In this document: positions 4,140 to 16,992 of the stretch, piece by piece
How positions within the stretch are numbered: position 1 is the first letter of the stretch
Layout: every line of letters begins with the position of its first letter
Assembly (NCBI GenBank): GCA_964493735.1
Contig: CAZBPN010000004.1
Location: 4,109-68,108 of the forward strand
DNA: 64,000 nt
Source: an uncultured Rickettsiales bacterium
GTDB taxonomy: Bacteria; Myxococcota_A; UBA796; UBA9615; CAYRNR01
Direction: 5' to 3'
Program-made: the position numbers and the translations under genes
The notes under the pieces: model-generated
Seen by the model: only the letters and a program-made list of their open reading frames with translations
Database searches by the model: none
Told to the model about the DNA's origin: nothing

Positions 4140-5084
4140 TCAGCCGAGGCGGGTCAGGAGCTCGGCGTGGGGTTCGTCTCCCAGGTCGCGGAGGCGAACG
4201 CGCTGGGCGGCCAAGAGGGCCGCCAGGTTGATCGCGGGGCGGTCGTCGCGGGCGGCGTCGGTGGCGTCGAGCAGGACGATGCGCAGGCGCGGCACGGTGG
4301 TCAGGGCGCGGGCCGCAGCCTCCTGCTCGGCGAGCATCGCCTCGTGGCCGGGGTGGGAGCCCACGTTGCCCCGCCCATCGGTGATCAGGACCAGCAACCG
4401 CCGCCGTCCATCATCCCGCCGTCCGTCCGCGGCCAGGGTGTCCAGGGATCGCTGCAGCGCGGACGCCAGTGGCGTCGTCCCGCCGCAGGGTAGACCGGCG
4501 ACGGCGCGCCGCACCAGCTCGGCCTGGGCGGTGGGCCGCAGCAGCAGGGGGGCATCACGGCCGGCGAACGCGATCAGCGCGACCTGGTCCCGCTGCAGGT
4601 AGGCGTCTCGCAGCAGGCCGACGGCGGCCCGCCGCGCCAGGGCGATCCGCTCGCCGCCCATGGAGCCGGAGGCGTCCACCGTGAACAGGACGAGGCGGCC
4701 CGGCCGGATGCGTCGGCGATGAGCGCGGAGGTCGGTCCGATCCAGACGCAGGGGCAGCTCCGGGGCACCGCTGGCCCCGAGTCGGGGCGCCGCCCGCGCC
4801 AGGGTCTGCGTCCAGGCCAGGTCCCGGGAACCGTCGGCCGGCCGGCTGCCCCAGGGGTGTCCCCGGTGGGGCCGCCCCGACGGCACCGACCGGCCCCGGC
4901 GCCGGCCGGGGTTGGCGGTCCGTTCCCGGTCGCCCGACAAGACCTGCTCCTCCCCGGGGAGGGGGGCAAGCAGGGGGGCGTCGGCGTTCGCCGGGGCGAA
5001 CAGCCCGAGCCCGAACAGCCCTTCTGAAGGGGATGCCGGCGCCTTGCCGTCCCGTGCCGCGGCGGTCGCGACGTCGCCCTGCAA
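4140..5084 (-). CDS. VWA (von Willebrand factor A) domain protein resembling the C-terminal half of the ChlD/BchD subunit. The start codon is uncertain: TTG at 5084 or GTG at 4886, or the protein is made as a fusion by a minus-one frameshift from the upstream ChlI-like gene
   Basis: The C-terminal 250 aa carry the MIDAS motif (VLFTVDASGSMGG) and match the ChlD-type VWA domain (LITDGRGNV). This frame has no in-frame ATG upstream of the VWA domain. The same frame continues upstream through a Pro-rich linker (RRPPPLTPGAPDREPPPPQ) to the ChlI-like stop codon. Confidence 0.5.
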   Translation of the reverse strand: MQGDVATAAARDGKAPASPSEGLFGLGLFAPANADAPLLAPLPGEEQVLSGDRERTANPGRRRGRSVPSGRPHRGHPWGSRPADGSRDLAWTQTLARAAPRLGASGAPELPLRLDRTDLRAHRRRIRPGRLVLFTVDASGSMGGERIALARRAAVGLLRDAYLQRDQVALIAFAGRDAPLLLRPTAQAELVRRAVAGLPCGGTTPLASALQRSLDTLAADGRRDDGRRRLLVLITDGRGNVGSHPGHEAMLAEQEAAARALTTVPRLRIVLLDATDAARDDRPAINLAALLAAQRVRLRDLGDEPHAELLTRLG

Positions 5085-5179
5085 CCGGCGGCCGTGGTTG
5101 CGGATGGCGTCCTGTGGGGGCGGAGGCTCTCGGTCGGGCGCGCCGGGGGTCAGCGGCGGGGGCCGCCTCGCCGCGGCGC

Positions 5180-6226
5180 TCAGGCTTTTTTTGCAGGAGC
5201 TTCCAGCATCTCCCGGGCCCGCCCGCGCAGCTCGTCGGGAGTCAGGCTCGCCTCCTCGAACGGGCGGCGACGGAGGCGGTGGGCGTACACCAGCGGCGCG
5301 GCCCGCTCCAGGTCGTCGGCGACCAGCTCGTCGCGGCCGGCCAGGGCGGCGAGGGCCATCGCCCCCTTGATCAGCAGCAGGTCGGCCCGGTGGCCGTCCA
5401 CCTCCAGGGAGAGGGAGAGCTCGGCCGCGGCCTCGAGCCAGCGGCGGGCGGGCCGGACCGCGGGCAGCCGCGCCCGCGCCGCGGCGATGGCCGTGGCCTC
5501 CTCGTTCTCCCGGTCGGCCCAGCGGGCGATGAAGCCCGCCGGATCCGCCTCGAAGGCCAGGTTGCGCTCGACGATCTCGGCCCGGCGGTCGGCGTCGGGC
5601 AGGTGGGCGATCTCCGCGCACAGGCCGAAACGGTCCTGCAGCTGGGGCCGCAGTTCCCCCTCCTCCGGGTTCATGGTGCCCACCAGCAGGAACTCGGCCG
5701 GGTGGCACACGGAGATCCCCTCCCGGGAGACCACGTTGACCCCGGACGCGGCCGCGTCCAGGAGCAGGTCCACCAGGGGGTCGTCGAGCAGGTTGACCTC
5801 GTCCACGTACAGGACCCCGCCGTTGACCCGGGCCAGCAACCCGGGCTCGAAGCGGCGGCGGCCGGACTGGAGCGCGTGCTCGATGTCCAGACTGCCCAGC
5901 AGGCGGTCCTCGGTGATGCCGAGGGGCAGGGTCTCGAAGGGCGCCCGGCGGCCCACGGGATCCGGGTCACCCTCCAGGGCCCGGCAGTCGTCGCACCAGT
6001 CCGCCGGGCGATCGGTCGCGCAACCGAACGCGCAGCCCCCGTTCACCCGCCCCACGGGGAGCAGTCGCGCCACTCCCCGGGCCAGGGTCGACTTGGCCGT
6101 GCCCTTCTCGCCGCGGATCAGCAGCCCGCCCAGGGCGGGATTGACCGCCAGCATCCGCAGCCCGAGCTTGACCTCGTCGTGTCCGACCACTGCGGACAGG
6201 GGCATCACGCGTTCCTCGGGCCGCAT
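5180..6226 (-). CDS. AAA+ ATPase of the magnesium-chelatase subunit I (ChlI/BchI) family, with a 4-Cys insert
   Basis: Walker A motif GEKGTAKST and the ChlI-typical blocks LLARVNGGVLYVDEVNLL and LVGTMNPEEGELRPQLQDRFGL are present. There is a Cys-rich insert, CAFGCATDRPADWCDDC. Confidence 0.85.
   Translation of the reverse strand: MRPEERVMPLSAVVGHDEVKLGLRMLAVNPALGGLLIRGEKGTAKSTLARGVARLLPVGRVNGGCAFGCATDRPADWCDDCRALEGDPDPVGRRAPFETLPLGITEDRLLGSLDIEHALQSGRRRFEPGLLARVNGGVLYVDEVNLLDDPLVDLLLDAAASGVNVVSREGISVCHPAEFLLVGTMNPEEGELRPQLQDRFGLCAEIAHLPDADRRAEIVERNLAFEADPAGFIARWADRENEEATAIAAARARLPAVRPARRWLEAAAELSLSLEVDGHRADLLLIKGAMALAALAGRDELVADDLERAAPLVYAHRLRRRPFEEASLTPDELRGRAREMLEAPAKKA
5186..5192 (-). other. 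A7 homopolymer (A_AAA_AAA followed by G) sitting two codons before the ChlI-like stop; candidate minus-one frameshift site or homopolymer sequencing error
   Basis: On the minus strand the zero frame reads GCA AAA AAA GCC TGA (A K K A stop). The minus-one frame reads TGC AAA AAA AGC CTG (C K K S L) and continues into the Pro-rich linker and VWA domain. Confidence 0.4.
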
Positions 6227-6248
6227 CGGGTCTCCCTCGCCGCTGGAT

Positions 6249-8096
6249 TCAGAAGCCGAAACCGAGCGCCCGTCGGCGCACCATCTGCTGGATGTAGTCG
6301 TCCACCTCGGCGTCCCGGTTGCGCCACCCGGCGGCCCGCACTCCCCGCAACGCCATGTCGATGGTGGTGTAGCGGACCTCCTCGAGCGCCCGCTCCGCCT
6401 TGACCTTGATCGGGCTGCCGCCGGGCCACTCGGTCTTGTAGGGCACCGGCGAGCCGTTCACCACGGCCTTGTCATAGGTGTAGCGCTTGAACGGCTCCTC
6501 CTTGGGGTGGCGATTGATCGGGTCGACCAGCTGGCGGGCCTTCAGGGCAGTCGCCAGCCCGTCGAGGGCGCCGGAGACCGCCTTCATCACCGGGGTCGGC
6601 TCGCCGATCAGCTGGCGGTAGCGCTCGTCGGCCTTGCGCACCCGTCGGCGGACCACGCCGTTGGGGGCGAAGCGGTCCATGCCCTTGAGCAGCAGCCAGA
6701 AGGTGGCGCTCTGCCGCTTGAAGTGCAGCGCCCGGTGACGCCGCAGCACCGGGTTGTCCGAGCGCCGGCAGTACTCGTAGCCGTTCATCAGCACGTCCAG
6801 GCGGCGCAGCAGCGACGGCCCCCAGGTGCGGTAGAGCAGGTCGTAGCCGTACTCGGTCAGGTTGAGGGTCTCGTGGGGCGCCAGCGACAGGTTCTTCTGG
6901 GCGCCGCTCCAGAAGTGCACGTCCTCCCAGGGCACGTCGTCGATCCGCCCCTCCTCCTTCAGCCGGTCCCACAGGGCCGTGCCCGGGAAGGGCGAGAGGC
7001 GGGTCAGCTGCTGGTAGGTGGGCATCAGCGACACGAAGTAGTTCAGGTCCTCGTGGATGTTGGTGTGGTCGTGGAAGTCCCAGCCGCAGATCCAGGCGCC
7101 CACGGTGCGGATCCCCATCGAGTGCAGCCGCGAGAAGCACTCGGCGGCGTCGATCTCGTCCCGCTTGTCGTAGCCGTGGTCGCCGGCGAACTTGGACTCC
7201 ACGCCGATGAAGACCGTGCCCAGCCCCAGCTCGGCGATGGCGTCCCAGCCGTACTTCTTCGCGAACTTGCCGATGTGGTCGATGGAGCCGAACCCGAACC
7301 AGTCGACGGCCTCCATCATCTCCGGGTGCCCCATCCAGTAGGGCCGCATCTCGTCCAGGTAGGCCGGCTGGCGGAAGTGGTCCTCCTCGACCACGAAGAC
7401 CTGGCGCACGTCCGGGAAGTGCTGGAAGTACAGGTGCATGTGCTCCACCAGCTCCTTGGGCGACAGCAGCTCGATGCGCTTGCGGTCGAACAGGGCGGTG
7501 GTCGAGCAGAAGTCGCAGCCGCCGATGCAGCCCAGCCCCGACACCAGGAAGCCGACCGCGCCCTTGGGATAGCGGCTGATGTAGGGCACGGTCCCGCCGG
7601 CCTTGGGCATCAGCGCCTGGCGGATCGGCCGGTCGGTGGCCTCGCCCAGCAGGCTGCGCATGAAGCGCACGCCCTCGCCGCTGACCACCCCGTCCACGTA
7701 CTGGCTCTGCTCCGCCTCGTCGTAGCTGGCCTGGAACGCCTGGCCGGCGTAGGAGCCCAGCAGGATCTTGGTGGCCGGCGATCGCTGGCGCACGTAGCGG
7801 CACATCTCCAGCACGCGGTCCAGGTGGACCGGGTAGGCGCTGATGCCCACCACCGGGTACCCCTTGTCGATCTCGGCGGTGAAGTCCTCCCAGCGGGGGT
7901 ACTCCAGCAGCACGGTCGGCGTGTCCACGTTCTGCGCCAGGATGTGGTTGGCGAAGCAGTGGGTGTGGGAGATCAACGAGAAGATGTCGTCCCCCTTGGT
8001 GAACCGCTGCCCGGTGGCGTCGGTCAACGAGTCGTTGGCCGGCAGGGTCGGGTAGGGGTAGGTCGGGGTGGTCAGCAGGATGCGGTTCTCCAGCAT
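6249..8096 (-). CDS. B12-binding-domain radical SAM enzyme (class B radical SAM methylase-like)
   Basis: The CX3CX2C cluster motif is present as GCIGGCDFCS, within a 615-aa protein that has an N-terminal Rossmann-like B12-binding region. The subfamily (BchE, HpnJ, HpnR or other) cannot be resolved by eye. Confidence 0.8.
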   Translation of the reverse strand: MLENRILLTTPTYPYPTLPANDSLTDATGQRFTKGDDIFSLISHTHCFANHILAQNVDTPTVLLEYPRWEDFTAEIDKGYPVVGISAYPVHLDRVLEMCRYVRQRSPATKILLGSYAGQAFQASYDEAEQSQYVDGVVSGEGVRFMRSLLGEATDRPIRQALMPKAGGTVPYISRYPKGAVGFLVSGLGCIGGCDFCSTTALFDRKRIELLSPKELVEHMHLYFQHFPDVRQVFVVEEDHFRQPAYLDEMRPYWMGHPEMMEAVDWFGFGSIDHIGKFAKKYGWDAIAELGLGTVFIGVESKFAGDHGYDKRDEIDAAECFSRLHSMGIRTVGAWICGWDFHDHTNIHEDLNYFVSLMPTYQQLTRLSPFPGTALWDRLKEEGRIDDVPWEDVHFWSGAQKNLSLAPHETLNLTEYGYDLLYRTWGPSLLRRLDVLMNGYEYCRRSDNPVLRRHRALHFKRQSATFWLLLKGMDRFAPNGVVRRRVRKADERYRQLIGEPTPVMKAVSGALDGLATALKARQLVDPINRHPKEEPFKRYTYDKAVVNGSPVPYKTEWPGGSPIKVKAERALEEVRYTTIDMALRGVRAAGWRNRDAEVDDYIQQMVRRRALGFGF

Positions 8097-8135
8097 CTCT
8101 CGGCTCCTATCGCCGCGCGTCGGGGCGGCGGTTGA

Positions 8136-9044
8136 TCACGAGACCACGGCGAGCGGCGCCGGCGCGTCGGCGGCGGCGTGCTCGACCAGGAATCGACCCA
8201 TGTGGGAGGCGAACTCGGCGGGCCGTTCCTCCTGCCAGAAGTGGCCGCAGAACGGGATCAGCTCGAAGCCGACGGTGCCGGGGATCTCCTCGGCCAGCTT
8301 CGCCCCCCACGAGGGTGAGATGTAGCGGTCCTCGGCCCCCCAGAGCACCAGGGTAGGCCGGTCGAAGCGACGCAGCCCCTCCACCGCGGCCAGGGAGTAG
8401 CGCGCGTGGCCGGCACGGAGGAAGCGGACGAACCGCGCCCGCTCGGCGGTCGTGCCGTGCAAGGGGCGCAGGTACTCGCGGATCGCCTCGTCCGAGAACG
8501 CCGCAGGATCGTGGACGCCCCGTCGGAACGCGGACCAGCGCGAGCGTGTCTCCCGCCACAGGAAGGCGCCGCTCCGGACGAGCAACGAGGGCAGCAGCGG
8601 CACCTGCCAGAGGGCCTGGAGGCGCGCGATCTCGGGCACGGGCCAGTTGTCGTAGGCCACGCAGTTGGTCAGGACCAGGGCGGTCACCCGCTCGGGCCAG
8701 CGGGCCGCCAGCAGCTGGGCCGCCGCTCCCCCCTGGTCGTGGGCCACCACGGCGAAGCGCTCGTGACCCAGGGTGGTCATGAACTCCAGCAGCATCTCGG
8801 CCTGGGCGTCCATGTGCAGGGGGGTGCGCTCCGGATCCACGTCCGTGTCCCCGAGCCCCATCAGGTCCGGCGCGTAGCCGTGGACGTCGTTGCCCAGCAT
8901 CCGCAGCACGTGCCGCCACAGCCATCCCGACGTGGGGATCCCATGGACGAACAGAACGGGCGGTCGCGTGCGCGAGCCCGCCTCCAGGTAGGCGATCTCT
9001 CCATACGACGTGTGGAGGCGCTGCTTCGGCGCCGAGGGGGTCAT
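8136..9044 (-). CDS. alpha/beta hydrolase with an Asp nucleophile, of the epoxide hydrolase or haloalkane dehalogenase type
   Basis: The nucleophile elbow reads VVAHDQGG (HD-x-GG). The ATG at 9044 overlaps the upstream MerR stop codon (ATGA). The 720-aa track ORF is an N-terminally over-extended version of this gene. Confidence 0.8.
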   Translation of the reverse strand: MTPSAPKQRLHTSYGEIAYLEAGSRTRPPVLFVHGIPTSGWLWRHVLRMLGNDVHGYAPDLMGLGDTDVDPERTPLHMDAQAEMLLEFMTTLGHERFAVVAHDQGGAAAQLLAARWPERVTALVLTNCVAYDNWPVPEIARLQALWQVPLLPSLLVRSGAFLWRETRSRWSAFRRGVHDPAAFSDEAIREYLRPLHGTTAERARFVRFLRAGHARYSLAAVEGLRRFDRPTLVLWGAEDRYISPSWGAKLAEEIPGTVGFELIPFCGHFWQEERPAEFASHMGRFLVEHAAADAPAPLAVVS

Positions 9045-10546
9045 CCGGTCCCCCTCCCCGGGCCGTCCAGGAACGCCCGCTCGGCCAGCGCACTGGCCGG
9101 ATCCAGCTGGCAGATCAGCGAGCGGAGATCGGCCCGGTGCGCCCCGGCCGCCTCGTCCTCGTCCCCGCGCCCCAGCGCCTCGAACAGCAGCCAGGCGGCG
9201 TTGATCTGGTGCCGCTCGGCGAGCCCGGGCAGGCCGGGGGCCGAGGGCGGGTCGTCCTGCAACCGCGCCAGCTGCGCCCGGAGCGCCTGGAGGCCCCGCT
9301 CCCGCTCCCGGAACGCCTCGGGCAGGGCGGTGAGCAGCCACGCGGCCAGGTACCCCACGTGGGACGCGTCGGCCTGGGGATCCCAGCGGTCGAGGGTCGA
9401 GTCGGCCAGGGCCCGGATGGTCGCGGCGTCGGATGCACCCCCCTTGTTCCCCTCGGTGCTCCGGGTGTAGAGCGCCAGCGCCAGGTAGACCGACGCCTCC
9501 GCGGGGGCGCGATCCCGGTCGACCTGGTCCTGGAGCAACTCGATCCCGGGGCCGGTCTCGCCGGAGAGCACGAGCGCGATGCCGTGCAGCGCCAGCAGCT
9601 CCGCATCCCCCGGGACCGCCTCCAGCCCCTGCTCCAGGGTGAACGCCGCCTCGCGGTAGCTGCCCGCGTGCATGTGGAGCTGGGCGGCCTGGCGCCACTC
9701 GGCGGGATCGCCGTGGCGGTTCGCCAGTAGCTGGCGGTGCTCGTCCACCGCCGACTGCAGATCGAAGCGCGCGCGGAAGGCCGCGCTGGGCCGGTAGACG
9801 ACCGTGGCCAGCACCCCCGCGGGCGCCGCGCCCAGCTCGAGGCGCCCGTGCAGCGCCCGCTGCAGCAGGGACTGCAGCACGTTGTGGACGAAGCTCGACG
9901 TGATCTCCCGGCGCACGAAGGCCTGGCCCAGCAGCCGCTCCGGCGTGCCCGCCTGTTCCCAGTCCAGCTCGATGAACTCCCGGTGCTCCAGCTCGAAGCC
10001 GACCCGCACGTAGGAGGCCACCGTGCGGAACGAGGCGAAGGGGATGCCGAGCTGGGTGCCCTGGTCGCACAGGGCGGCCACGTGGGCGTCGTAGGAGGTG
10101 AAGCGCGGCGGTGTCGTGCCCTCCAGCGGGCGGATCACCTGCTGGCCGATCAGCTCCTCGAGGCGGCTCACGTCGACGCCGGCCTCCTCGGCCAGCTCGT
10201 CGGCGCTCAGGGTCCGGCCGAGCCCCAGGTCCGAGGACTCCGCGAATCGACTCAGCCGCTGGGCCAGCGATTCGATGTGGAACAGGGGCTGCAGCCACTC
10301 GGGATCGAACTCGTAGAGCTCGAAGATGCGGCGCACCGTGTCCAGGGGCAGGTGGAACTCGTCCCGCAGCTTGCGCACCAGGTGCAGCAGCCGCAGGTGC
10401 TGCTCGCCGTAGCGAGCGCGGGTCTCGCAGGGCGGGAGGATCCCCTGGCGCAGGTAGTGGTGGATGAGCTCCTTGGACACGCCGGTGCGTTCCACCAGCT
10501 CGCTGATCCGGAGGCCTTCGGGACGGACGGGGGTAGAGGTGCTCAC
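9041..10546 (-). CDS. MerR-family transcriptional regulator with a large C-terminal TPR-like domain
   Basis: The N-terminal MerR helix-turn-helix is LRISELVERTGVSKELIHHYLRQGIL. It is followed by about 350 aa that are helical and repeat-like. Confidence 0.8.
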   Translation of the reverse strand: MSTSTPVRPEGLRISELVERTGVSKELIHHYLRQGILPPCETRARYGEQHLRLLHLVRKLRDEFHLPLDTVRRIFELYEFDPEWLQPLFHIESLAQRLSRFAESSDLGLGRTLSADELAEEAGVDVSRLEELIGQQVIRPLEGTTPPRFTSYDAHVAALCDQGTQLGIPFASFRTVASYVRVGFELEHREFIELDWEQAGTPERLLGQAFVRREITSSFVHNVLQSLLQRALHGRLELGAAPAGVLATVVYRPSAAFRARFDLQSAVDEHRQLLANRHGDPAEWRQAAQLHMHAGSYREAAFTLEQGLEAVPGDAELLALHGIALVLSGETGPGIELLQDQVDRDRAPAEASVYLALALYTRSTEGNKGGASDAATIRALADSTLDRWDPQADASHVGYLAAWLLTALPEAFRERERGLQALRAQLARLQDDPPSAPGLPGLAERHQINAAWLLFEALGRGDEDEAAGAHRADLRSLICQLDPASALAERAFLDGPGRGTG

Positions 10547-10565
10547 GTCAACTCCTGATTTAATC

Positions 10566-10710
10566 TACTACACGAAATCGTGTAACCAATGCAACCCTAA
10601 TCGTCAGGGGAGTGATGAAACGGGCTGGGAGTGGGGAAAACGTCCAGGTTTCCGATGGTTGCGAATTGTTCATCATCGCGTTCATCGTTTTCGTGTAACG
10701 AGTTTACACT
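10566..10710. promoter_or_regulatory. divergent promoter or operator region between the MerR regulator and the secreted peptidase genes, with lower GC and repeated TCGTGTAAC motifs
   Basis: An inverted repeat tacacgaAAtcgtgta lies at about 10569-10584. A second cgtgtaac copy lies within tgtaacgagtttaca at about 10690-10706. The region is markedly AT-richer than the flanking sequence. Confidence 0.3.
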
Positions 10711-10759
10711 AGGTTTCGACGCGGGGTGCAGACGATCTGCCCCTGGAGCGGGAGGAACG

Positions 10760-12004
10760 ATGAGGAACGTCGCCCGAACCTTCCTGAGCATCCTGGTGAT
10801 GGGGGCCCTGGTGGGCTGCTTTGCCGAGGCCCCGAAGGATCCGCCGGGGCCCCAGGCCGAGGACGACATGTCCGCCCGCAACGGCGGCCCGTCGGTGCGT
10901 CTGATGCACCCCCAGAACGGGCAGGCCGTGCCCAACCCGGTCTCCTTCGCCATCGACACCACCGCCGGGATCCACAAGGTCGTCTTGGACGCGGACGGCT
11001 GGGTCCTCGACGAGTGGGATCCCCACCACTACACGATCGTGGATTACACCTTCCAGGGCGTGAACACGCCGCGGGTGATCACCCTCACCGGGTTCGACGC
11101 CCACGGCACCCCGAAGGACACCGACAGCGTCGTTATCACGGTCTACAACGATGACGGCGGTGGCGGCTCCACCCCCGGGGGCACCGACGTCCGCATCACC
11201 GCCCCGGGCGACGGGGCCGACGTCCACAACCCCGTCACCTTCGACACCAGCTCCAACGGGATCCACGCGCTCAAGCTGTTCGCGGACGGCTACGACATCA
11301 GCGACTTCTGGAAGCCCGAGTGGGGCAGCACCCATACCTACGAGTTCTCCCAGGGCGGCACCCGGGAGATCGAGCTGGTCGGCTACGACAGCGGCTGGAA
11401 CCGGGTCGCCAAGGACGTCATCACCATCCACGTCGACGGGGCCAGCAACCCGGGCAACGACAACAACAACAACAACGGCAACAACAACAACGGGGGCAAC
11501 AACAACGGCTCGCTCAACGTCCCGTACTACTACCAGTACAGCAACGCGTACGAGCCGAGCGCCACCTGCGGGCTGACGTCGGCGGCCATGCTGCTGAGCT
11601 ACATGAAGGGCACCAGCGTCGACCCCGACACCCTCTACCTGAACTACGGCAAGGCCCAGGGGCAGTCGCCGGGTTCCCTCGCGCAGCTGTACAGCTGGGA
11701 GGGCCTGTACGCGGACTCCACCTACGGCGGCACCCGTTCCATGATCAAGAACCAGCTGGACGCTGGCCGGCCCGTGCTGGTGCACACCTTCCTCACCGGC
11801 GCGGGCCACATCATCTGCATCGTCGGCTACGACGGTAGCGGCTGGATCGTCAACGATCCGGCCGGCGACTGGTACCAGTGCTACGGCTGCGGCGCCTACG
11901 GCGACCACGTGCACTATCCCTACGGCGGCGGCGCCGACGATGCCTTCAGCCACGACGGGGACATCTGGATGTCCTCGGCGGACACGTCCTCGTTCGGCTT
12001 CTAG
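10760..12004 (+). CDS. secreted lipoprotein with two tandem N-terminal repeat modules of about 75 aa, a poly-Asn linker and a C39-like (papain-fold) cysteine peptidase domain
   Basis: The ATG at 10760 has a GGAGG ribosome-binding site and starts a signal peptide with lipobox LVGC. The two repeat modules read PNPVSFAIDTTAGIHKVVLDADGWVLDEW and HNPVTFDTSSNGIHALKLFADGYDISDFW. They are followed by NNNNNGNNNNGGNNNG. The catalytic Cys (SATCGLTSAAML) and His (GHIICIVGYD) are present. Confidence 0.7.
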   Translation: MRNVARTFLSILVMGALVGCFAEAPKDPPGPQAEDDMSARNGGPSVRLMHPQNGQAVPNPVSFAIDTTAGIHKVVLDADGWVLDEWDPHHYTIVDYTFQGVNTPRVITLTGFDAHGTPKDTDSVVITVYNDDGGGGSTPGGTDVRITAPGDGADVHNPVTFDTSSNGIHALKLFADGYDISDFWKPEWGSTHTYEFSQGGTREIELVGYDSGWNRVAKDVITIHVDGASNPGNDNNNNNGNNNNGGNNNGSLNVPYYYQYSNAYEPSATCGLTSAAMLLSYMKGTSVDPDTLYLNYGKAQGQSPGSLAQLYSWEGLYADSTYGGTRSMIKNQLDAGRPVLVHTFLTGAGHIICIVGYDGSGWIVNDPAGDWYQCYGCGAYGDHVHYPYGGGADDAFSHDGDIWMSSADTSSFGF

Positions 12005-12032
12005 CCGGACGACGGGCAGGAGGAACCTGACC

Positions 12033-13055
12033 ATGCATGCCATCCGACGCCTTCTGGGCGTGTGCGCACTCTGGACGATCCTGGCGGTCGCGGGCTGCTA
12101 CGCCCCCTACGGGGGTGGCGAGGAGCGGGAGCCCGGCGGCGGCCTGGACGGGGTGGCCCGGGACGGCTGGGGCGTCCCCGCCGTGGCCATCGTCTCCCCC
12201 TCGGACGGGTCCCGGGTCACCAACCCCGTCCTCTTCCGGATCGAGGCCACCGGCGTGGCCCGTGTCGCCCTCGACGCGGACGGCTGGGGGCTGGGTGATG
12301 CCTGGGATCCCGACCACCACCCCGAGGTGTCGTACTCCTTCAACGGGGTGGGGTTCGATCGCGTGATCACCCTCCGGGGTATCGACGAGTGGGGGGTCGA
12401 GGTCGCGAGCGACACCATCACGATCCTGGTGGAGGACGAGAGCACGCCCCCCGACGACGGCGGTGGTGATCCCCCCGACGGCGGTGATCCGGAGTGTCCG
12501 TGGTTCGAGTCGTCCATGCAGGAGTACGCCCCGGTGCAGATCGCGGCGGCGGGCCTGCCCTACGGCGCCAACCAGCTGGCCTGGTCGATGCCCTCCGCCT
12601 ATACGGTCCGCGTGCCCTTCTCCGGTCACCCCGGGTACTCGGCCAACCACGAGGGCATCGACCTGATCCACGACGACCCGGGCGTGCCGGACGTGGGCGT
12701 GCATGCGGCCGCGGACGGGGTGGTGGCCTACGTGCGGATCGGGTGCGCCGAGACCTCCCTGTTCAGCCCCAACGGACAGGCCCGCGAGTGCGGCTCGGGA
12801 TGGGGCAACCACGTGGTGATCCACCACGGCGACGGCGTGTACACCCGCTACGCTCACCTGCGGCCGGGCTACACCATCGTCGACGTGGGCTGGACCGTCA
12901 CCCGCGGCCAGCGACTGGGCGCCATGGGCAACTCCGGTCGCAGCGAGACGCGCCACCTGCACCTCGAGCTGGGCACCTCTGGCGGCTTCGATCCCTGCGC
13001 TCCGGCCCAGTCCCTCGATGCGGTCCACGACCCGGATCTGCTGCCCGGATTCTGA
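12033..13055 (+). CDS. secreted lipoprotein carrying the same N-terminal repeat module plus an M23 (LytM) metallopeptidase domain
   Basis: The ATG at 12033 has a GCAGGAGG ribosome-binding site and lipobox AGC. The shared module reads TNPVLFRIEATGVARVALDADGWGLGDAWDP. M23 motifs are HEGIDL (HxxxD) and ETRHLHLE (HxH). Confidence 0.8.
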   Translation: MHAIRRLLGVCALWTILAVAGCYAPYGGGEEREPGGGLDGVARDGWGVPAVAIVSPSDGSRVTNPVLFRIEATGVARVALDADGWGLGDAWDPDHHPEVSYSFNGVGFDRVITLRGIDEWGVEVASDTITILVEDESTPPDDGGGDPPDGGDPECPWFESSMQEYAPVQIAAAGLPYGANQLAWSMPSAYTVRVPFSGHPGYSANHEGIDLIHDDPGVPDVGVHAAADGVVAYVRIGCAETSLFSPNGQARECGSGWGNHVVIHHGDGVYTRYAHLRPGYTIVDVGWTVTRGQRLGAMGNSGRSETRHLHLELGTSGGFDPCAPAQSLDAVHDPDLLPGF

Positions 13056-13121
13056 GCCCGACGCCCTGGTAAAACGCGCCTAACCTTGTCTAGTGGCCCC
13101 TCGCCCGGGCACACTGTTGTG

Positions 13122-14207
13122 ATGGGCGAGAGCGGGGCTGCGGCCGAGGGCAACCAGGAGGCGAGCCAGGCGGAGCTGGCGGCGCGTTGGCGGGCGAGCG
13201 TCGACGGCGGGGGGACCCGCCGCGATGCGGCGCTGGCCGCGCTGCGGGGCGGCGGCCCGGCCGCCGAGCGGCCCCGGGATCTGCGGGGGATCGACCTGCT
13301 CCGCGAGGACCTGTCCGGCCTCGACCTGTCCCGCTGTGACCTGACCGGCGCTCACCTGGCCGAGGCGGACCTCTCCGGCGCCAATCTCTCCTTCTGCACC
13401 CTGGCGGACGCGGTCCTGTTCGAGGCCAACCTGGACGACGCGGAGTTGTTGAGCGCGGACCTCTCCGGCTCCGACCTGAACGGGTGCAAGGCGTCGCGGG
13501 CGGGCTTCGGCGGCGCCAACCTGACCCGGTCGACCCTGGTCAGCGCGACCCTCGAGGATGCCTCGCTGAGCAACGCGACCCTGGTGGACGCGGACTTCCG
13601 CGGCGCGTCGATGGCCGGTGCCCGGATGCGCACCTCGGACCTCTCCGGCGCCAACTTCGCCAAGGCGGACGTGCGGCGCGCGGACCTGCAGGAGAGCGAG
13701 CTGCGGGGCGCGGACTTCACCGACACCGACCTGCGTTCCGCCCACCTCAAGCGGGTGACCGGCTTCGAGCACGCCGGGTGGATCGGCACCGACGTGAGGG
13801 ACGTGGACTTCTGTGGTGCCTACCTGGTCCGGCGCCACATCATGGACGAGAACTACCTGGACGAGTTCCGGCGCCGCGACCGCCTGTCCGGGGTGCTGTT
13901 CCGCATCTGGTCGATCACCTCGGACTGTGGCCGTAGCTTCTATCGCTGGGCGCTGTGGACCGTGCTGGTGGCCGTGCTGTACGGCCTGGCGTACACGCGG
14001 GTCGACCTGGACTACGGCGACCACCCGACCTTCCTGTCCGCCATGTACTTCAGCGTGGTGACCCTGACCACCCTGGGCTACGGCGACGTGCTGCCCGCGT
14101 CGTCCGCGGCCCAGGTGCTGGCGGTGTCCGAGGTCGTCCTGGGCTACGTGGCCCTCGGCGGCCTGCTCAGCATCTTCGCGTCCAAGATGTCCCGACGGGC
14201 GGAGTGA
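13122..14207 (+). CDS. pentapeptide-repeat protein fused to a two-transmembrane potassium-channel pore domain
   Basis: About 200 aa of A(D/N)LxG-type pentapeptide repeats are followed by TM1, a pore helix with the selectivity filter TTLGYGD, and TM2. The start is either the ATG at 13122 or the TTG at 13086. Confidence 0.75.
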   Translation: MGESGAAAEGNQEASQAELAARWRASVDGGGTRRDAALAALRGGGPAAERPRDLRGIDLLREDLSGLDLSRCDLTGAHLAEADLSGANLSFCTLADAVLFEANLDDAELLSADLSGSDLNGCKASRAGFGGANLTRSTLVSATLEDASLSNATLVDADFRGASMAGARMRTSDLSGANFAKADVRRADLQESELRGADFTDTDLRSAHLKRVTGFEHAGWIGTDVRDVDFCGAYLVRRHIMDENYLDEFRRRDRLSGVLFRIWSITSDCGRSFYRWALWTVLVAVLYGLAYTRVDLDYGDHPTFLSAMYFSVVTLTTLGYGDVLPASSAAQVLAVSEVVLGYVALGGLLSIFASKMSRRAE

Positions 14208-14218
14208 GAGGGGGACCC

Positions 14219-15079
14219 GTGTTCAAGTTCCTGGCCCGCAAGAAGAAGGACCCCCGGGCCGAGCTGCGCAAGGTGCTCGGCGACCACGACCTGCCGGTGT
14301 TCTCCGGGGTGGTGATGCAGACCCTGGAGCGCATGCGGGATCCGCGCTCGTCGCCGGCCCAGATCGCCGCGGTGATGGCCGCGGACCCGGGCCTGTCCGT
14401 GCGCGTGCTCAAGTCCGTCAACACGGCGGCGTACTCGCTGCGCCGCAAGATCACCTCCCTGGACCAGGCCATCGGCCTGCTGGGGCTGGCCACGGTGGAG
14501 TCGCTGGTCCTCGCGGTGGCGGTCAAGGACTCCCTCCCCACGGCGCCGGCGCAGGGCTACGACGCAACCCGGTTCTGGAGGGCAGCGGCGCGGCGGGCCA
14601 CCACGGCCCGCGCCATCGCCGCCCGGTTCCATCCGGCGCAGGCTGCCGAGAGCTTCACGGCCGCGTTGCTCCAGGACATGGCCATCCCGGTGCTGGCGAG
14701 CGACGAGATCGGCTCCTACGGCGCCCTGCTCGAGCACTGGCACAACTCCGATGACGATCTGGCGGTCCTCGAGCACGCGGAGTTCGGCTGGAACCACCCG
14801 GAGGTGGCCACCTGGATGTGCGACGAGTGGGTCCTGCCCGAGGCCCTGGCCTCGTCCATCGGCGCCCACCACGGCGTGGTCGGCGAGGGGACCGAGGGGC
14901 TGGTCTGCCCGCCGGCGGTGACCCTGGTCTCCCACCTCCGCGAACCCGAGGATCGTGACGGCTCCGACCGGCTGGTCGAGGCGGTCCACGACGAGTTCGG
15001 CGTCGCGACCGACGAGGTGGTCGTCCTGGTCGAGGAGAGCTTCGACAACGCGGAGGAACTCGCGGCGCTCTTCGTCTGA
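14219..15079 (+). CDS. HDOD (HD-related output domain) signalling protein
   Basis: A GTG start lies 12 nt after the channel gene stop, with a GAGGGGG ribosome-binding site. The HDOD-like segment reads VVMQTLERMRDPRSSPAQIAAVMAADPGLSVRVLKSVNTAAYSL. Confidence 0.7.
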   Translation: MFKFLARKKKDPRAELRKVLGDHDLPVFSGVVMQTLERMRDPRSSPAQIAAVMAADPGLSVRVLKSVNTAAYSLRRKITSLDQAIGLLGLATVESLVLAVAVKDSLPTAPAQGYDATRFWRAAARRATTARAIAARFHPAQAAESFTAALLQDMAIPVLASDEIGSYGALLEHWHNSDDDLAVLEHAEFGWNHPEVATWMCDEWVLPEALASSIGAHHGVVGEGTEGLVCPPAVTLVSHLREPEDRDGSDRLVEAVHDEFGVATDEVVVLVEESFDNAEELAALFV

Positions 15080-15094
15080 GCCCGCAGGGCGAGA

Positions 15095-16354
15095 TCAGCC
15101 CTGGAGCCGACGCCGGCGCAGGCCGATCAAGATCAGCGGGGCGGCGAGCCCCACCCGGGCCCACGGACGCGCCGCGTGGGGCTCGGAACCGCAGGAGCAA
15201 CCGTCCTGCCCTCCGCCGGGCGGACCGGGCGGATCGCCGCCCGTGTCGTCATCCCCCGTCGCGTCGTCGTCGTCATCCCCGGCCGTCGCGTCGTCGTCAT
15301 CATCGTCGCCTGTGGCGTCGTCGTCCCCGGTGGCGTCGTCGTCGTCATCGTCGCCGGTGGCGTCGTCATCGTCCCCCGGCGGCGAGTAGCTGAACCGCAT
15401 CGCGTCGTACCCGATCTTGCGGCCGAGGGTCTCGTAGTCCTCACCGGTGTTGTCGCCCAGGTGGACGTACTGCTCGGACGAGCCGTCGAAGCGGAACGTG
15501 CCCAGGGTCTGCCAGCCCTTGTCCTCGGACTGGTTCACCGTGGCGGGGCTGACACCGTCGGCGTGGTGGATCTGGTAGGTGGCGTGGTGGGAATCGGCCT
15601 CGGTGTCGGGGATGTGGGCGTCCACCCGGTAGTCGCCGGCCACGGTCACCTCGAAGAGCCACTCCCCGGTGGTCTCCTCGACCGGCTCGTCGGTGGCGTA
15701 GGTGTAGTAGTGGTGTCCGTCGTGGCCCTCGGCCACGTCCCACCACCACTGGCTGACCCGCCGGAAGCAGCTGCCGTCGCTCTCGCTGACCACCGTCTCG
15801 TCGCCGTCCAGGGTGGCCTCGCACCCGCAGCCGGATCCGCAGTTGTCCGACGTCACCGAGGTCGGGTAGAGGGGGTCGCCCACGTCCAGGAACTCCGCGT
15901 GGATCGACTGGCACCACCAGGAGTTGCACAGCTCCTGGATCTGGTAGTGCAGGTGGGCTCCACAGACCCAGCCGGTCAGCCCCACCCGCCCGACCACGTC
16001 GCCAGCACAGACGTCGTCCCCCACCTGGAGGGAGGACGACCAGGTGTCCAGGTGCAGATAGAGTGCCGCGCTCCCGTCGCCGTGGTCGACGACCACGTAG
16101 TTGGCGTCGTTGGCGTAGGCCGCGTCGCAGCCGCCCGTGGTGGAGTCCATCCGGATCTCGTCGACCACCCCCGGCGCCGACGCCCAGACCTCCTCGCCGA
16201 CCCCCATCCCGAAGTCCCAGGCCCAGGCCCCCATGCCCGTGTGACTGCCGCCGTTGTGGTCCTGGGTGATCTGGAAGGTCGCGCCACAGCTCCACGGCAG
16301 CTCCAGCGGAGGGGTGGAGAGCACCACCAGGGTGAGGAGCGCGGGGAGCTGCAT
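15095..16354 (-). CDS. secreted M23 metallopeptidase with a D-rich (DDDATG)n region and a MYXO-CTERM sorting signal
   Basis: M23 motifs present include HTGMGAWAWDF and HGDGSAALYLHL. A C-terminal D-rich repeat is followed by GCSCGS, a hydrophobic stretch (LAAPLILIGL) and RRRRLQG, which matches the MYXO-CTERM sorting signal. Confidence 0.75.
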   Translation of the reverse strand: MQLPALLTLVVLSTPPLELPWSCGATFQITQDHNGGSHTGMGAWAWDFGMGVGEEVWASAPGVVDEIRMDSTTGGCDAAYANDANYVVVDHGDGSAALYLHLDTWSSSLQVGDDVCAGDVVGRVGLTGWVCGAHLHYQIQELCNSWWCQSIHAEFLDVGDPLYPTSVTSDNCGSGCGCEATLDGDETVVSESDGSCFRRVSQWWWDVAEGHDGHHYYTYATDEPVEETTGEWLFEVTVAGDYRVDAHIPDTEADSHHATYQIHHADGVSPATVNQSEDKGWQTLGTFRFDGSSEQYVHLGDNTGEDYETLGRKIGYDAMRFSYSPPGDDDDATGDDDDDDATGDDDATGDDDDDDATAGDDDDDATGDDDTGGDPPGPPGGGQDGCSCGSEPHAARPWARVGLAAPLILIGLRRRRLQG

Positions 16355-16428
16355 GGATCCTCCTTCCCGTGGGGGGCTTGACCTTCCATCATATCGTCCG
16401 CAGCGGATCCACCGGCAGGGAGGTGACG

Positions 16429-16992
16429 ATGCCCGGCGAGGACGTGCTCGGGATTCACGTGGCGCTACTGCGAGGCATCAACGTGGGCGGGAAGAACAAG
16501 CTCCCCATGAAGCCGCTGGTGGGGATCTTCGAGGCGGCCGGGTGCGTGGACGTCTCGACCTACATCCAGAGCGGCAACGTGGTCTTCCGTGCCAGCGGCG
16601 ACCTCGCCCGGGAGATCCCGGAGCGGATCCGGATGGCCATCGAGGCAGATCTCGATCTTCGGGTGCCCGTGGTGACGCGGACCGCGGACGAGCTGCGCGC
16701 GGTGCTCGCCGACCATCCGTTCCTCGCGGCCGGCGTTGATCCGAAGCAGCTCGCGGTGGGCTTCCTGGCGGAGCGGCCCGCCCCGGAGGACGTGGCCCGC
16801 CTCGACCCGGATCGCTCCCCACCGGACGAGTTCGCCGTCCGGGGGAGGGAGATCTACCTGCGCTTCCCCAACGGCGTGGCCCGCAGCAAGCTCTCCAGCG
16901 CCTACCTGGACTCCCGCCTGGGGACCACCACGACGGTCCGCAACCATCGCACGCTGGTCGCGCTGATCGAGCGGGTTGACGCGCTGTCCTAG
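16429..16992 (+). CDS. DUF1697 family protein
   Basis: The ATG at 16429 has a GGAGG ribosome-binding site. HVALLRGINVGGKNKL is typical of DUF1697. Confidence 0.6.
   Translation: MPGEDVLGIHVALLRGINVGGKNKLPMKPLVGIFEAAGCVDVSTYIQSGNVVFRASGDLAREIPERIRMAIEADLDLRVPVVTRTADELRAVLADHPFLAAGVDPKQLAVGFLAERPAPEDVARLDPDRSPPDEFAVRGREIYLRFPNGVARSKLSSAYLDSRLGTTTTVRNHRTLVALIERVDALS

Follow-up and report, generated by a model that had tools for sequence, protein, structure and literature searches.

Among the wall-expansion endopeptidases of Escherichia coli, MepS is a lipoprotein of the NlpC/P60 cysteine peptidase type and MepM is an M23 enzyme. MepM is grouped with ShyA, LytM and zoocin A in the M23 / LytM-lysostaphin family. 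Another family of cysteine peptidases, Peptidase_C39_2 (PF13529; YvpB-type), is represented by a crystal structure from Bacillus anthracis (3ERV), and is counted as a lytic domain in phage lysin surveys (PMC8223927). A lysozyme and a C39_2-like domain are joined in the endolysins of cyanophages (PHROG 10051; Synechococcus phages ACG-2014f, S-RIM14, and S-N03). In the literature searched, we found neither a biochemically defined substrate for Peptidase_C39_2, nor an experimentally characterised C39-like peptidoglycan hydrolase, nor a demonstrated peptidoglycan activity for the C39_2 subfamily described below. Papers on giant genes of predatory bacteria and on archaeal peptidoglycan hydrolases had no bearing on this family. 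As for accessory domains, known systems for comparison are Big_7 (PF17957) and, in glycoside hydrolases, FN3-like/Ig modules such as the Fn3-like ones of CbhA (3PE9/3PDD).

Relatives of these systems are brought together in one locus of the window, the whole 64-kb stretch of DNA analyzed here. Two neighboring genes on the plus strand, gene 1 (10760..12004; 414 aa) and gene 2 (12033..13055; 340 aa), encode a C39_2 and an M23 protein, respectively, both with Ig-like modules, and a gene on the minus strand (9041..10546; 501 aa) encodes a MerR family regulator with a TPR C-terminal half. Taken as a whole, it is somewhat probable that the locus specifies two lipid-anchored peptidoglycan peptidases equipped with Ig modules, and that the MerR-TPR protein acts through the control region shared by the two transcription units. 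With enzymes from known families in a conventional architecture, this is a fairly ordinary cell-wall hydrolase locus, and it does not overturn current understanding.

Two Predicted Lipoproteins With Different Peptidase Domains

The signal peptides of the gene 1 and gene 2 products end in the lipoboxes LVGC (residues 17–20) and VAGC (residues 19–22), respectively, and both proteins are thus predicted lipoproteins by the pattern [LVI][ASTVI][GAS]C at the signal peptide end, in agreement with a preliminary description of this DNA. A lipobox-like motif is found within the first 45 aa in 78 of 110 C39 homologues and 62 of 113 M23 homologues, while in a control stretch (residues 100–145) it is found in 0 of 115 and 2 of 120, respectively. 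The same description had assigned different hydrolase domains to the two proteins, and this is borne out by the family matches and active-site residues given below.

In gene 1, the two Ig-like modules and an N/G linker are followed by the catalytic domain (11513..12001), which matches Peptidase_C39_2 at residues 252–368 with an E-value of 2e-18 (67.7 bits vs. a Pfam cut-off of 24). The papain-like fold is accompanied by the conserved Gln/Cys/His/Asp(Asn) active site, consisting of Gln259, Cys270, His350, and Asp366. A sequence search of the PDB gave no meaningful match for gene 1, and NCBIfam has no family for it. The best viral structural matches of the domain are lysozyme/endolysin proteins of Synechococcus phages (TM 0.8, 24–30% identity, E 1e-10 to 1e-12), and PHROG 10051, “endolysin,” matches gene 1 at an E-value of 1e-12. 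Furthermore, C39_2 homologues of the gene 1 subfamily are fused to a GH25 muramidase, and also to a phage lysozyme plus PG_binding_1. Unlike the cyanophage endolysins, the gene 1 product is cellular, predicted to be lipid-anchored, and devoid of a muramidase domain, and unlike a phage lysis cassette, the gene adjoins a transcription factor gene. The protein also differs from the YvpB-type enzyme 3ERV in being a lipoprotein, in the two Ig-like modules at its N-terminus, and in its source, a Gram-negative-type organism of high GC content. A bacteriocin-processing C39 peptidase (PF03412, PCAT type) was considered as another identity and rejected: PF03412 has no match to the gene 1 protein at E ≤ 0.01 (Pfam), the lipoprotein signal places the protein outside the cytoplasm, and, unlike in PCAT/ABC-transporter C39 domains, no transporter is fused to it, and gene 1, like its counterparts in five related loci, has no ABC transporter gene next to it. 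The linker preceding the catalytic domain (11456..11509), previously taken as 16 residues of Asn and Gly, is indeed present as an N/D/G run of 18 residues (233–250), and is coded by trinucleotide tandem repeats (CAA/CAACGG at 11455–11509). Its length and composition differ between the gene 1 homologues.

Gene 2 starts 28 nt past the end of gene 1 with its own AGGAGG ribosome-binding site, and encodes a single Ig-like module followed by the M23 metallopeptidase domain (12645..12977). The match to Peptidase_M23 (PF01551) has an E-value of 1e-16 (60.9 bits vs. a Pfam cut-off of 28.7), and both motifs of the family, HxxxD and HxH, are intact as HEGID at 206–210 (H206, D210) and HLH at 308–310 (H308, H310). 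Among solved structures, those of ShyA- and LytM-type enzymes are closest, with ShyA as the best match (E 1e-8). Assignment to a named M23 equivalog (MepM, ShyA, DipM, NlpD, EnvC, or the archaeal NF052336) was rejected, since the best NCBIfam score, 47.4 bits, does not approach its cut-off of 500 and the others are also far below theirs. Unlike in ShyA, MepM, LytM, and zoocin A, the accessory domain of gene 2 is Big_7-like and not LysM, SH3b, or coiled coil, and the M23 domain has a Cys-containing insert. By analogy with MepS and MepM, the pair may represent a cysteine peptidase lipoprotein and an M23 enzyme working on the cross-links of the cell's own peptidoglycan, with the differences that C39_2 takes the place of NlpC/P60 and that genes 1 and 2 are adjacent and linked to a regulator. 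At a distance of 2 kb from the gene pair, there is a gene for a third M23 hydrolase, which has a Golvesin_C domain and a MYXO-CTERM-like tail.

Ig-Like Modules and Their Partners

The module shared by the two proteins is found three times by a profile HMM, with domain E-values of 1e-31 to 1e-36: at 10886..11158 (residues 43–133) and 11180..11449 (residues 141–230; E 5.4e-31) in gene 1, and at 12174..12446 (residues 48–138; E 7.4e-36) in gene 2. Thus, the earlier count of two copies and one copy holds, while the length is about 90 aa instead of 75 aa, with 26 invariant columns common to the three copies. The identity of the gene 2 module reaches 55% with modules from other C39 proteins, but 46% and about 35% with the two copies in gene 1. 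On these identities, a recent local duplication between genes 1 and 2 was rejected for the module, which had been described earlier as duplicated.

In its fold, the module is a generic sandwich of the Ig/FN3-like type, related to Big_7. The copies in the window score 20.0 and 18.2 bits for Big_7, below the Pfam cut-off of 24.1, and 38 of 83 module relatives match Big_7 at E ≤ 1e-4. Because of these matches and the Ig/FN3-like fold, we regard the module as a divergent relative of Big_7. The Pfam partners in the best 83 of 961 module profile matches are Amidase_2 (19), C39_2 (16), 3D (9), SpoIID (7), M23 (5), VanY (4), S13 (2), GH25 (2), and SLT (2); that is, the closest relatives within these best 83 reside mostly on peptidoglycan enzymes. 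In this respect, the sub-family is unlike the FN3-like/Ig modules of glycoside hydrolases, since its carriers are mainly peptidoglycan enzymes, not polysaccharide hydrolases. Related Ig repeats are also present in giant proteins without a hydrolase domain. Since the fold is generic and the repeats occur in giant proteins of this kind, substrate binding by the module is something that we infer.

The MerR-TPR Regulator and Its Conserved Neighborhood

The regulator has a MerR-type HTH at the N-terminus (MerR_1, 52.3 bits vs. a Pfam cut-off of 21.6) in addition to TPR_14/TPR_19, and its family is small, consisting of 28 clusters. It resembles the FtsR/Rv1828-type MerR regulators in that the N-terminal HTH is followed by a region weakly similar to FtsR and Rv1828_C, and differs from them in its size of about 500 aa and the TPR C-terminal half. 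Identification as FtsR itself was rejected, because the NCBIfam score is 37.8 bits against a cut-off of 150 and the protein has 501 aa with a TPR half vs. about 220 aa. The gene is the first of an operon reaching about position 4140, in which genes for an alpha/beta hydrolase, a B12/radical-SAM-like protein, a ChlI-like AAA+ protein, and a VWA protein follow. This downstream operon is the most widely conserved partner of the regulator, and the two are seen together in the window and in the related loci L007, L011, and L013–L016. Five to six MerR-TPR loci are without any C39 gene. A scan of genome contigs with the regulator as query gave a single locus, L007, and a scan of metagenomes gave three, all of them weak or partial (L008–L010); the regulator is full-length in L008 alone, and L009 contains a partial match.

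The divergent pair of a MerR-TPR gene and a two-module C39 gene is found in eight of eight two-module genes with visible context, down to 46% identity (the window, L001, L004, L005, L007, L012, L017, and the locus of P0278), and the other neighbors differ between these eight loci. The surroundings of a C39 gene with a single module are different. In six of the pairs (L001, L004, L005, L012, L017, and P0278; 46–82% identity), the regulator gene is without the downstream operon, the C39 gene is still its divergent neighbor, and the flanks are otherwise unrelated. There is also a rearranged form, in which the M23 gene is located on the other side of the regulator gene (L017/L018). The regulator, C39, and M23 proteins diverge roughly in step, with identities of 75–82% in L001/L007 and 46–60% in L017, and this parallel divergence suggests vertical inheritance. 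Judging from sequence comparison, a functional link between the MerR-TPR gene and the peptidase genes is supported by the conserved, even rearranged, neighborhood and by the conserved repeat core described below.

The Divergent Control Region

MerR-family operators are dyads located inside the over-long (19–20 bp) −35/−10 spacer of the target promoter. The region between gene 1 and the regulator gene (10547..10759) was correctly noted before as having a low GC content and two inverted repeats; its length is 213 bp, not 214 bp, and its GC content is 0.51 vs. 0.71 over the whole window. In L001 and L007, which are close relatives, the region is shorter by about 120 bp. TCGTGTAAC has two copies in 64 kb, both inside this region, against an expectation of 0.09. 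Site 1 (10569..10585), a candidate operator, is a dyad of TACAC-N6-GTGTA (TTACACGATTTCGTGTA on the minus strand) located 28–38 nt before the start codon of MerR-TPR; it has zero mismatches to TTACAC-N6-GTGTA, and its position agrees with that of the hexamer in other loci. Site 2, a dyad of GTGTAA-N5-TTACAC at 10693–10709, is included in a block of TTCATC..CGTTCATCGTTTTCGTGTAAcGaGTTTA (10668..10709). Compared with L001 and L007, this block of the window is nearly invariant between divergent flanks, and L004, L005, and L017 have a related element. A scan of 10300–13400 detected no sigma-70-like promoters or intrinsic terminators. An Rfam scan of 10300–13300 gave chance-level matches only, far below the gathering scores, and no known RNA element.

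Upstream of MerR-TPR genes in general, CGTGTA/TACACG is the most enriched hexamer, occurring 14 times in 1646 bp, whereas 20000 shuffles averaged 0.75 and never exceeded 6. A single fixed dyad, TTACAC-N6-GTGTA, was rejected as the element of all loci, as it fits the window and L013, loosely fits L004, L005, and L014, and fails in L017 and L012. Because this fixed dyad does not fit all loci, our claim is limited to the enriched hexamer core. This core lies 18–53 nt before the start codon of the regulator and at a variable distance, about 41–114 nt, from that of C39, and it is also present in loci without a C39 gene. Since the repeat is positioned by the start codon of the regulator and exists without C39, it would primarily be a promoter/operator element of the regulator itself, and may serve for autoregulation only. 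As to control of the peptidase genes by the divergent regulator, as proposed in the preliminary description, neighborhood and repeat core support a functional link, but the repeat belongs in the first place to the regulator.

Possible Roles of the Locus

A peptidoglycan peptidase is the best reading for the C39_2 protein, because relatives of its modules are on peptidoglycan enzymes, its homologues are fused to GH25 or phage lysozyme, and cyanophage endolysins match its catalytic domain. We infer peptidoglycan as the substrate, binding of the repeats by the regulator, and co-regulation. Genes 1 and 2 would form a two-gene operon, whose products, a papain-fold C39_2 cysteine peptidase and an M23 zinc endopeptidase, would both be lipid-anchored outside the cytoplasm and act on peptidoglycan, probably by cleaving different bonds of its stem peptides or cross-links. 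The domain fusions and endolysin relatives thus point to paired extracytoplasmic cell-wall enzymes, as envisaged from the outset. The Big_7-like Ig modules may be rigid spacers or sacculus-targeting modules, keeping the catalytic domain off the membrane anchor. Half-sites of the CGTGTAA type in the shared control region are most likely bound by the MerR-TPR protein, which would thereby control both divergent operons, its own and that of the peptidases. If confirmed, the locus would provide a first defined substrate for Peptidase_C39_2, a family present in endolysin catalogues and many genome annotations, as well as, for the unstudied MerR-TPR family, a regulator with its operator and targets. 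The Big_7-like Ig sub-family would then be an accessory domain accompanying peptidoglycan enzymes of many catalytic types, and would aid annotation of wall hydrolases in metagenomes.

As to the physiological role, regulated remodeling of the cell's own wall is tentatively and slightly favored over lysis of prey or competitors, which is nevertheless possible, and lipoprotein anchoring fits housekeeping remodeling and predation equally well. In its full form, the predatory or competitive reading, in which lipoproteins at the cell surface or in outer-membrane vesicles lyse other bacteria and the Ig modules target the prey wall, seems somewhat doubtful. It draws on the endolysin domains as the closest viral relatives, on the GH25 and phage lysozyme fusions in the family, on the third M23 hydrolase nearby, and on some homologues labeled Myxococcota or Deltaproteobacteria by their depositors, names that make an assignment to Myxococcota plausible, but no immunity or secretion-system gene adjoins genes 1 and 2, the in-step divergence suggests vertical inheritance and not the patchy spread typical of weapons, and housekeeping wall hydrolases in Gram-negatives are normally anchored as lipoproteins, too. 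Rather unlikely is a further reading, a dedicated signal-responsive lysis cassette (MerR-TPR, two-module C39_2, and module-M23) in a high-GC lineage that is uncultured and perhaps belongs to Myxococcota. In it, C39_2 would be an uncharacterised class of peptidoglycan-cleaving cysteine peptidase also found in cyanophage endolysins, the module a true peptidoglycan-binding domain specialised for wall hydrolases, and the TPR half a sensor of an envelope or prey-derived cue that turns on the enzymes for predation or programmed autolysis.

Very improbable is a protein- or peptide-processing role of the C39_2 enzyme, for example cutting after Gly-Gly or activating the neighboring M23 enzyme: the lipoprotein signal directs it outside the cytoplasm, while such leader peptidases are cytoplasmic domains of ABC transporters, neither a transporter nor a precursor peptide gene adjoins it, and the partners of both the catalytic domain and the modules are peptidoglycan enzymes. 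It is also unlikely that the neighborhood of the regulator is without regulatory meaning, MerR-TPR controlling its own operon alone and the peptidase genes adjoining it by descent. The wider conservation of the downstream operon as partner, and the distance of the repeat core, fixed from the regulator start and variable from the C39 start, would agree with this. Nevertheless, the six loci that have lost the operon keep the divergent C39 gene, and in L017 the M23 gene has moved and yet still adjoins the regulator gene.

Paired lipoprotein peptidases

The preliminary description reported paired lipoprotein peptidases with a shared module and a divergent regulator, and this observation is confirmed. 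Gene 1 (10760–12004, 414 aa) and gene 2 (12033–13055, 340 aa), as given by the ORF list and translation, are co-directional, separated by 28 nt, and each preceded by a strong ribosome-binding site. Both had been taken for lipoproteins; indeed, their signal peptides lead to lipoboxes, LVGC at residues 17–20 in gene 1 and VAGC at residues 19–22 in gene 2. A lipobox-like motif is found within the first 45 residues in 78 of 110 C39 homologues and 62 of 113 M23 homologues, and in 0/115 and 2/120, respectively, when an internal stretch of the same families is taken as the control, so that the motif is enriched at the N-termini. Judged from these sequences, lipoprotein status is a family trait of the C39 and M23 proteins alike. 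The poly-Asn/Gly linker described in gene 1 is present as an N/D/G run of 18 residues, not 16, encoded by CAA-type tandem repeats (CAA/CAACGG, 12 trinucleotide copies, at 11455–11509). The repeat may be slippage-prone, because the length and composition of the linker differ between homologues.

Hydrolase domains

The C39-like domain proposed for gene 1 is recognized as Pfam Peptidase_C39_2 at 67.7 bits (cut-off 24). Its best matches among predicted viral structures are Synechococcus phage proteins named “lysozyme” and “endolysin” (TM 0.8, 24–30% identity, E 1e-10 to 1e-12), and PHROG 10051 “endolysin” matches the domain at E 1e-12. Cellular homologues join C39_2 to GH25 muramidase, to phage lysozyme with PG_binding_1, or to Golvesin_C. 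Phage lysin surveys include Peptidase_C39_2 among lytic domains (PMC8223927; PMC10541714). A review of papain-like enzymes regards members of the C39_2 family as peptidases whose specificity is unknown (PMC10318531), and no biochemical proof of peptidoglycan activity for C39_2 was found in the published literature searched. Because of the endolysin relatives, the lysozyme and GH25 fusions, the lysin surveys and the extracytoplasmic location, the gene 1 product is best read as a putative peptidoglycan peptidase or amidase. The window protein and P0001, a 414-aa cluster representative in public data, are identical except at one residue: P0001 has Ala in place of Asp366 (codon at 11855–11857), an otherwise invariant active-site residue. 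P0001 may be a naturally inactive form, or one of the assemblies may contain an error.

The M23 assignment of gene 2 holds: Pfam Peptidase_M23 scores 60.9 bits (cut-off 28.7), with intact zinc and catalytic motifs. ShyA and other LytM-type enzymes are its nearest solved relatives, while named NCBIfam M23 equivalogs were rejected as its identity, every score being far under cut-off. The M23 sub-family comprises at least 291 clusters, and the module, judged by query coverage, is included in some members and absent from many. GH25, Golvesin_C, the Ig-like module and PG_binding_1 are variously combined with C39_2 or M23 (homologues P0019, P0038, P0072, P0062, P0067, P0115 and others; window 15095–16354), and these many combinations indicate extensive domain shuffling among the hydrolases. 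The gene order is C39, M23, DUF1697 in the related loci L001 and L007; in the window, three extra genes (13086–16354) lie between M23 and DUF1697 (16369–16992). One fuses a pentapeptide repeat to a potassium channel, another encodes an HDOD protein, and the third encodes a further M23 hydrolase, which has Golvesin_C and a MYXO-CTERM-like tail rich in Asp/Thr.

The shared Ig-like module

The module is located by a profile of all three window copies at residues 43–133 and 141–230 of gene 1 and 48–138 of gene 2 (E-values 1e-31 to 1e-36). In the set of homologues gathered with gene 1, one copy is found in 85 sequences, two in 12 and three in 3; the most frequent layout is a single module ahead of C39_2 in a protein of about 300 aa. 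The gene 2 module shares 55% identity with modules of other C39 proteins, but only 46% and about 35% with the two of gene 1; the two genes therefore have a domain family in common, and a recent local duplication is ruled out by these identities.

Against 1.84 billion representatives, the profile gave 961 matches. In the best 83 of these 961 that were short enough to scan, the Pfam partners are Amidase_2 (19), C39_2 (16), 3D (9), SpoIID (7), M23 (5), VanY (4), Peptidase_S13, GH25 and SLT (2 each) and NAGPA (1), with unrelated domains in just a few. Big_7 is matched in 38 of the same 83, which makes the module a diverged relative of Big_7; the copies in the window score just under the Big_7 cut-off. 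The alternative of a generic Ig-like spacer, found also with non-hydrolase domains, which the preliminary description had named as its refutation, applies to the fold and to the outer fringe of the family, where four giant proteins carry 11–19 partial module-related repeats and no hydrolase domain. It does not apply to the close relatives, which are overwhelmingly on peptidoglycan enzymes. On these domain partnerships, the module family is biased to peptidoglycan enzymes.

Regulator and its gene neighborhood

The divergent gene at 9041–10546 encodes MerR_1 and TPR domains (Pfam), as had been described, and belongs to a small family of 28 clusters with 35–100% identity. A two-module C39 gene is divergent from MerR-TPR in eight of the 14 loci examined (the window, L001, L007, L004, L005, L012, L017 and the P0278 locus), with regulator identity falling from 82 to 46% and the remaining flanking genes unrelated. 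All eight two-module C39 genes with visible context are paired with MerR-TPR, and P0039, a single-module C39 gene, instead lies behind a sigma-54 activator. In the window, L001 and L007, M23 comes after C39; in L017/L018 the M23 gene flanks the regulator on its opposite side and is convergent with it. Because the trio stays together through this rearrangement, gene order gives good evidence for a functional tie. The closest genome record is that of L007 (CAZITQ010000167.1), with a regulator 81% identical to that of the window. The window has about 70% GC, and some homologues are named Myxococcota or Deltaproteobacteria.

Furthermore, MerR-TPR opens a conserved operon in seven loci: the window, L007, L011 and L013–L016. 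The operon includes a BchO-like alpha/beta hydrolase and a B12-binding/radical-SAM-like protein of about 615 aa; a ChlI-like AAA+ protein comes next in three of the loci (the window, L007 and L016), joined in the window by a VWA protein. There, the operon (4140–10546, minus strand) contains the hydrolase at 9020–8136, the 615-aa protein, with weak HpnJ similarity, at 8096–6249, the AAA+ protein at 6226–5180 and the VWA protein at 5708–4140, the last being ORF limits and not a fixed start codon. In relatives, successive genes often have overlapping or almost adjoining start and stop codons. The regulator–operon partnership is older and wider than the C39 pairing. Operon-bearing loci without C39 have other genes in the divergent position. 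In L011 (1995–3422), a GH5 cellulase-family protein replaces C39 as the divergent neighbor of a 55% identical regulator.

Possible physiological role

Remodelling of the cell's own wall is a role to which we give slightly less than an even chance. The lipid anchor on both peptidases and the roughly parallel divergence of the C39, M23 and MerR-TPR proteins across loci point to it, as does analogy with the MepS/MepM pair of Escherichia coli. Attack on other cells is only somewhat less likely; it is suggested by the endolysin relatives and lysozyme fusions of C39_2 and by a third hydrolase, the M23 enzyme with Golvesin_C and the MYXO-CTERM-like tail, 2 kb away. Overall, the earlier interpretation is partly supported. 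The genes add new members to known families, and their arrangement is conserved yet conventional; what is added is the module family's bias to peptidoglycan enzymes and the conservation of both the MerR-TPR/C39/M23 trio and the repeat core.

Control region

The low-GC region reported upstream of gene 1 is 213 bp long, not 214, with a GC content of 0.51 versus 0.71 for the window. Both inverted repeats claimed to contain TCGTGTAAC were found: this sequence occurs twice in 64 kb (0.09 expected), both times between gene 1 and MerR-TPR. Site 1 (10569–10585) is the dyad TTACACGATTTCGTGTA, and site 2 (10693–10709) is GTGTAA-N5-TTACAC, within a block of about 28 nt near-invariant across the window, L001 and L007. 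The window region exceeds those of L001 and L007 by about 120 bp, and site 1 is in the extra DNA. At 10587–10667 this DNA also holds GGGAGTGATGAAA/GGGAGTGGGGAAA, a direct repeat with a spacing of 19 nt, for which no match was seen in Rfam.

CGTGTA/TACACG is top-ranked of all hexamers across 12 regulator-upstream regions. With L017 added, it has 14 matches in 1646 bp (20000 shuffles: mean 0.75, maximum 6), compared with 0–1.0 per kb elsewhere in the same loci. In 10 of 13 loci, among them L013, L014 and L016, which lack C39, it is located 18–53 nt before the regulator start codon, while the C39 start codon is at a variable distance from it, about 41 to 114 nt. Because of this near-fixed spacing to the regulator, the variable spacing to C39 and its presence without C39, the element is predicted to belong primarily to the promoter/operator of the regulator itself. 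Where the divergent region is short, control of the peptidase promoter by the element is conceivable too, a step that we infer, since no sigma-70-type promoter was detected in a scan of 10300–13400. Upstream of the relocated M23 gene in L017 (4930–4975), a −35-like hexamer, TTGACG, precedes CTTACTCGCTATCGTGCATCCT, which resembles, by eye, the L013 regulator-upstream element CTTACACAAAATCGTGTATGCT (16/22 identical) and may represent a second operator.
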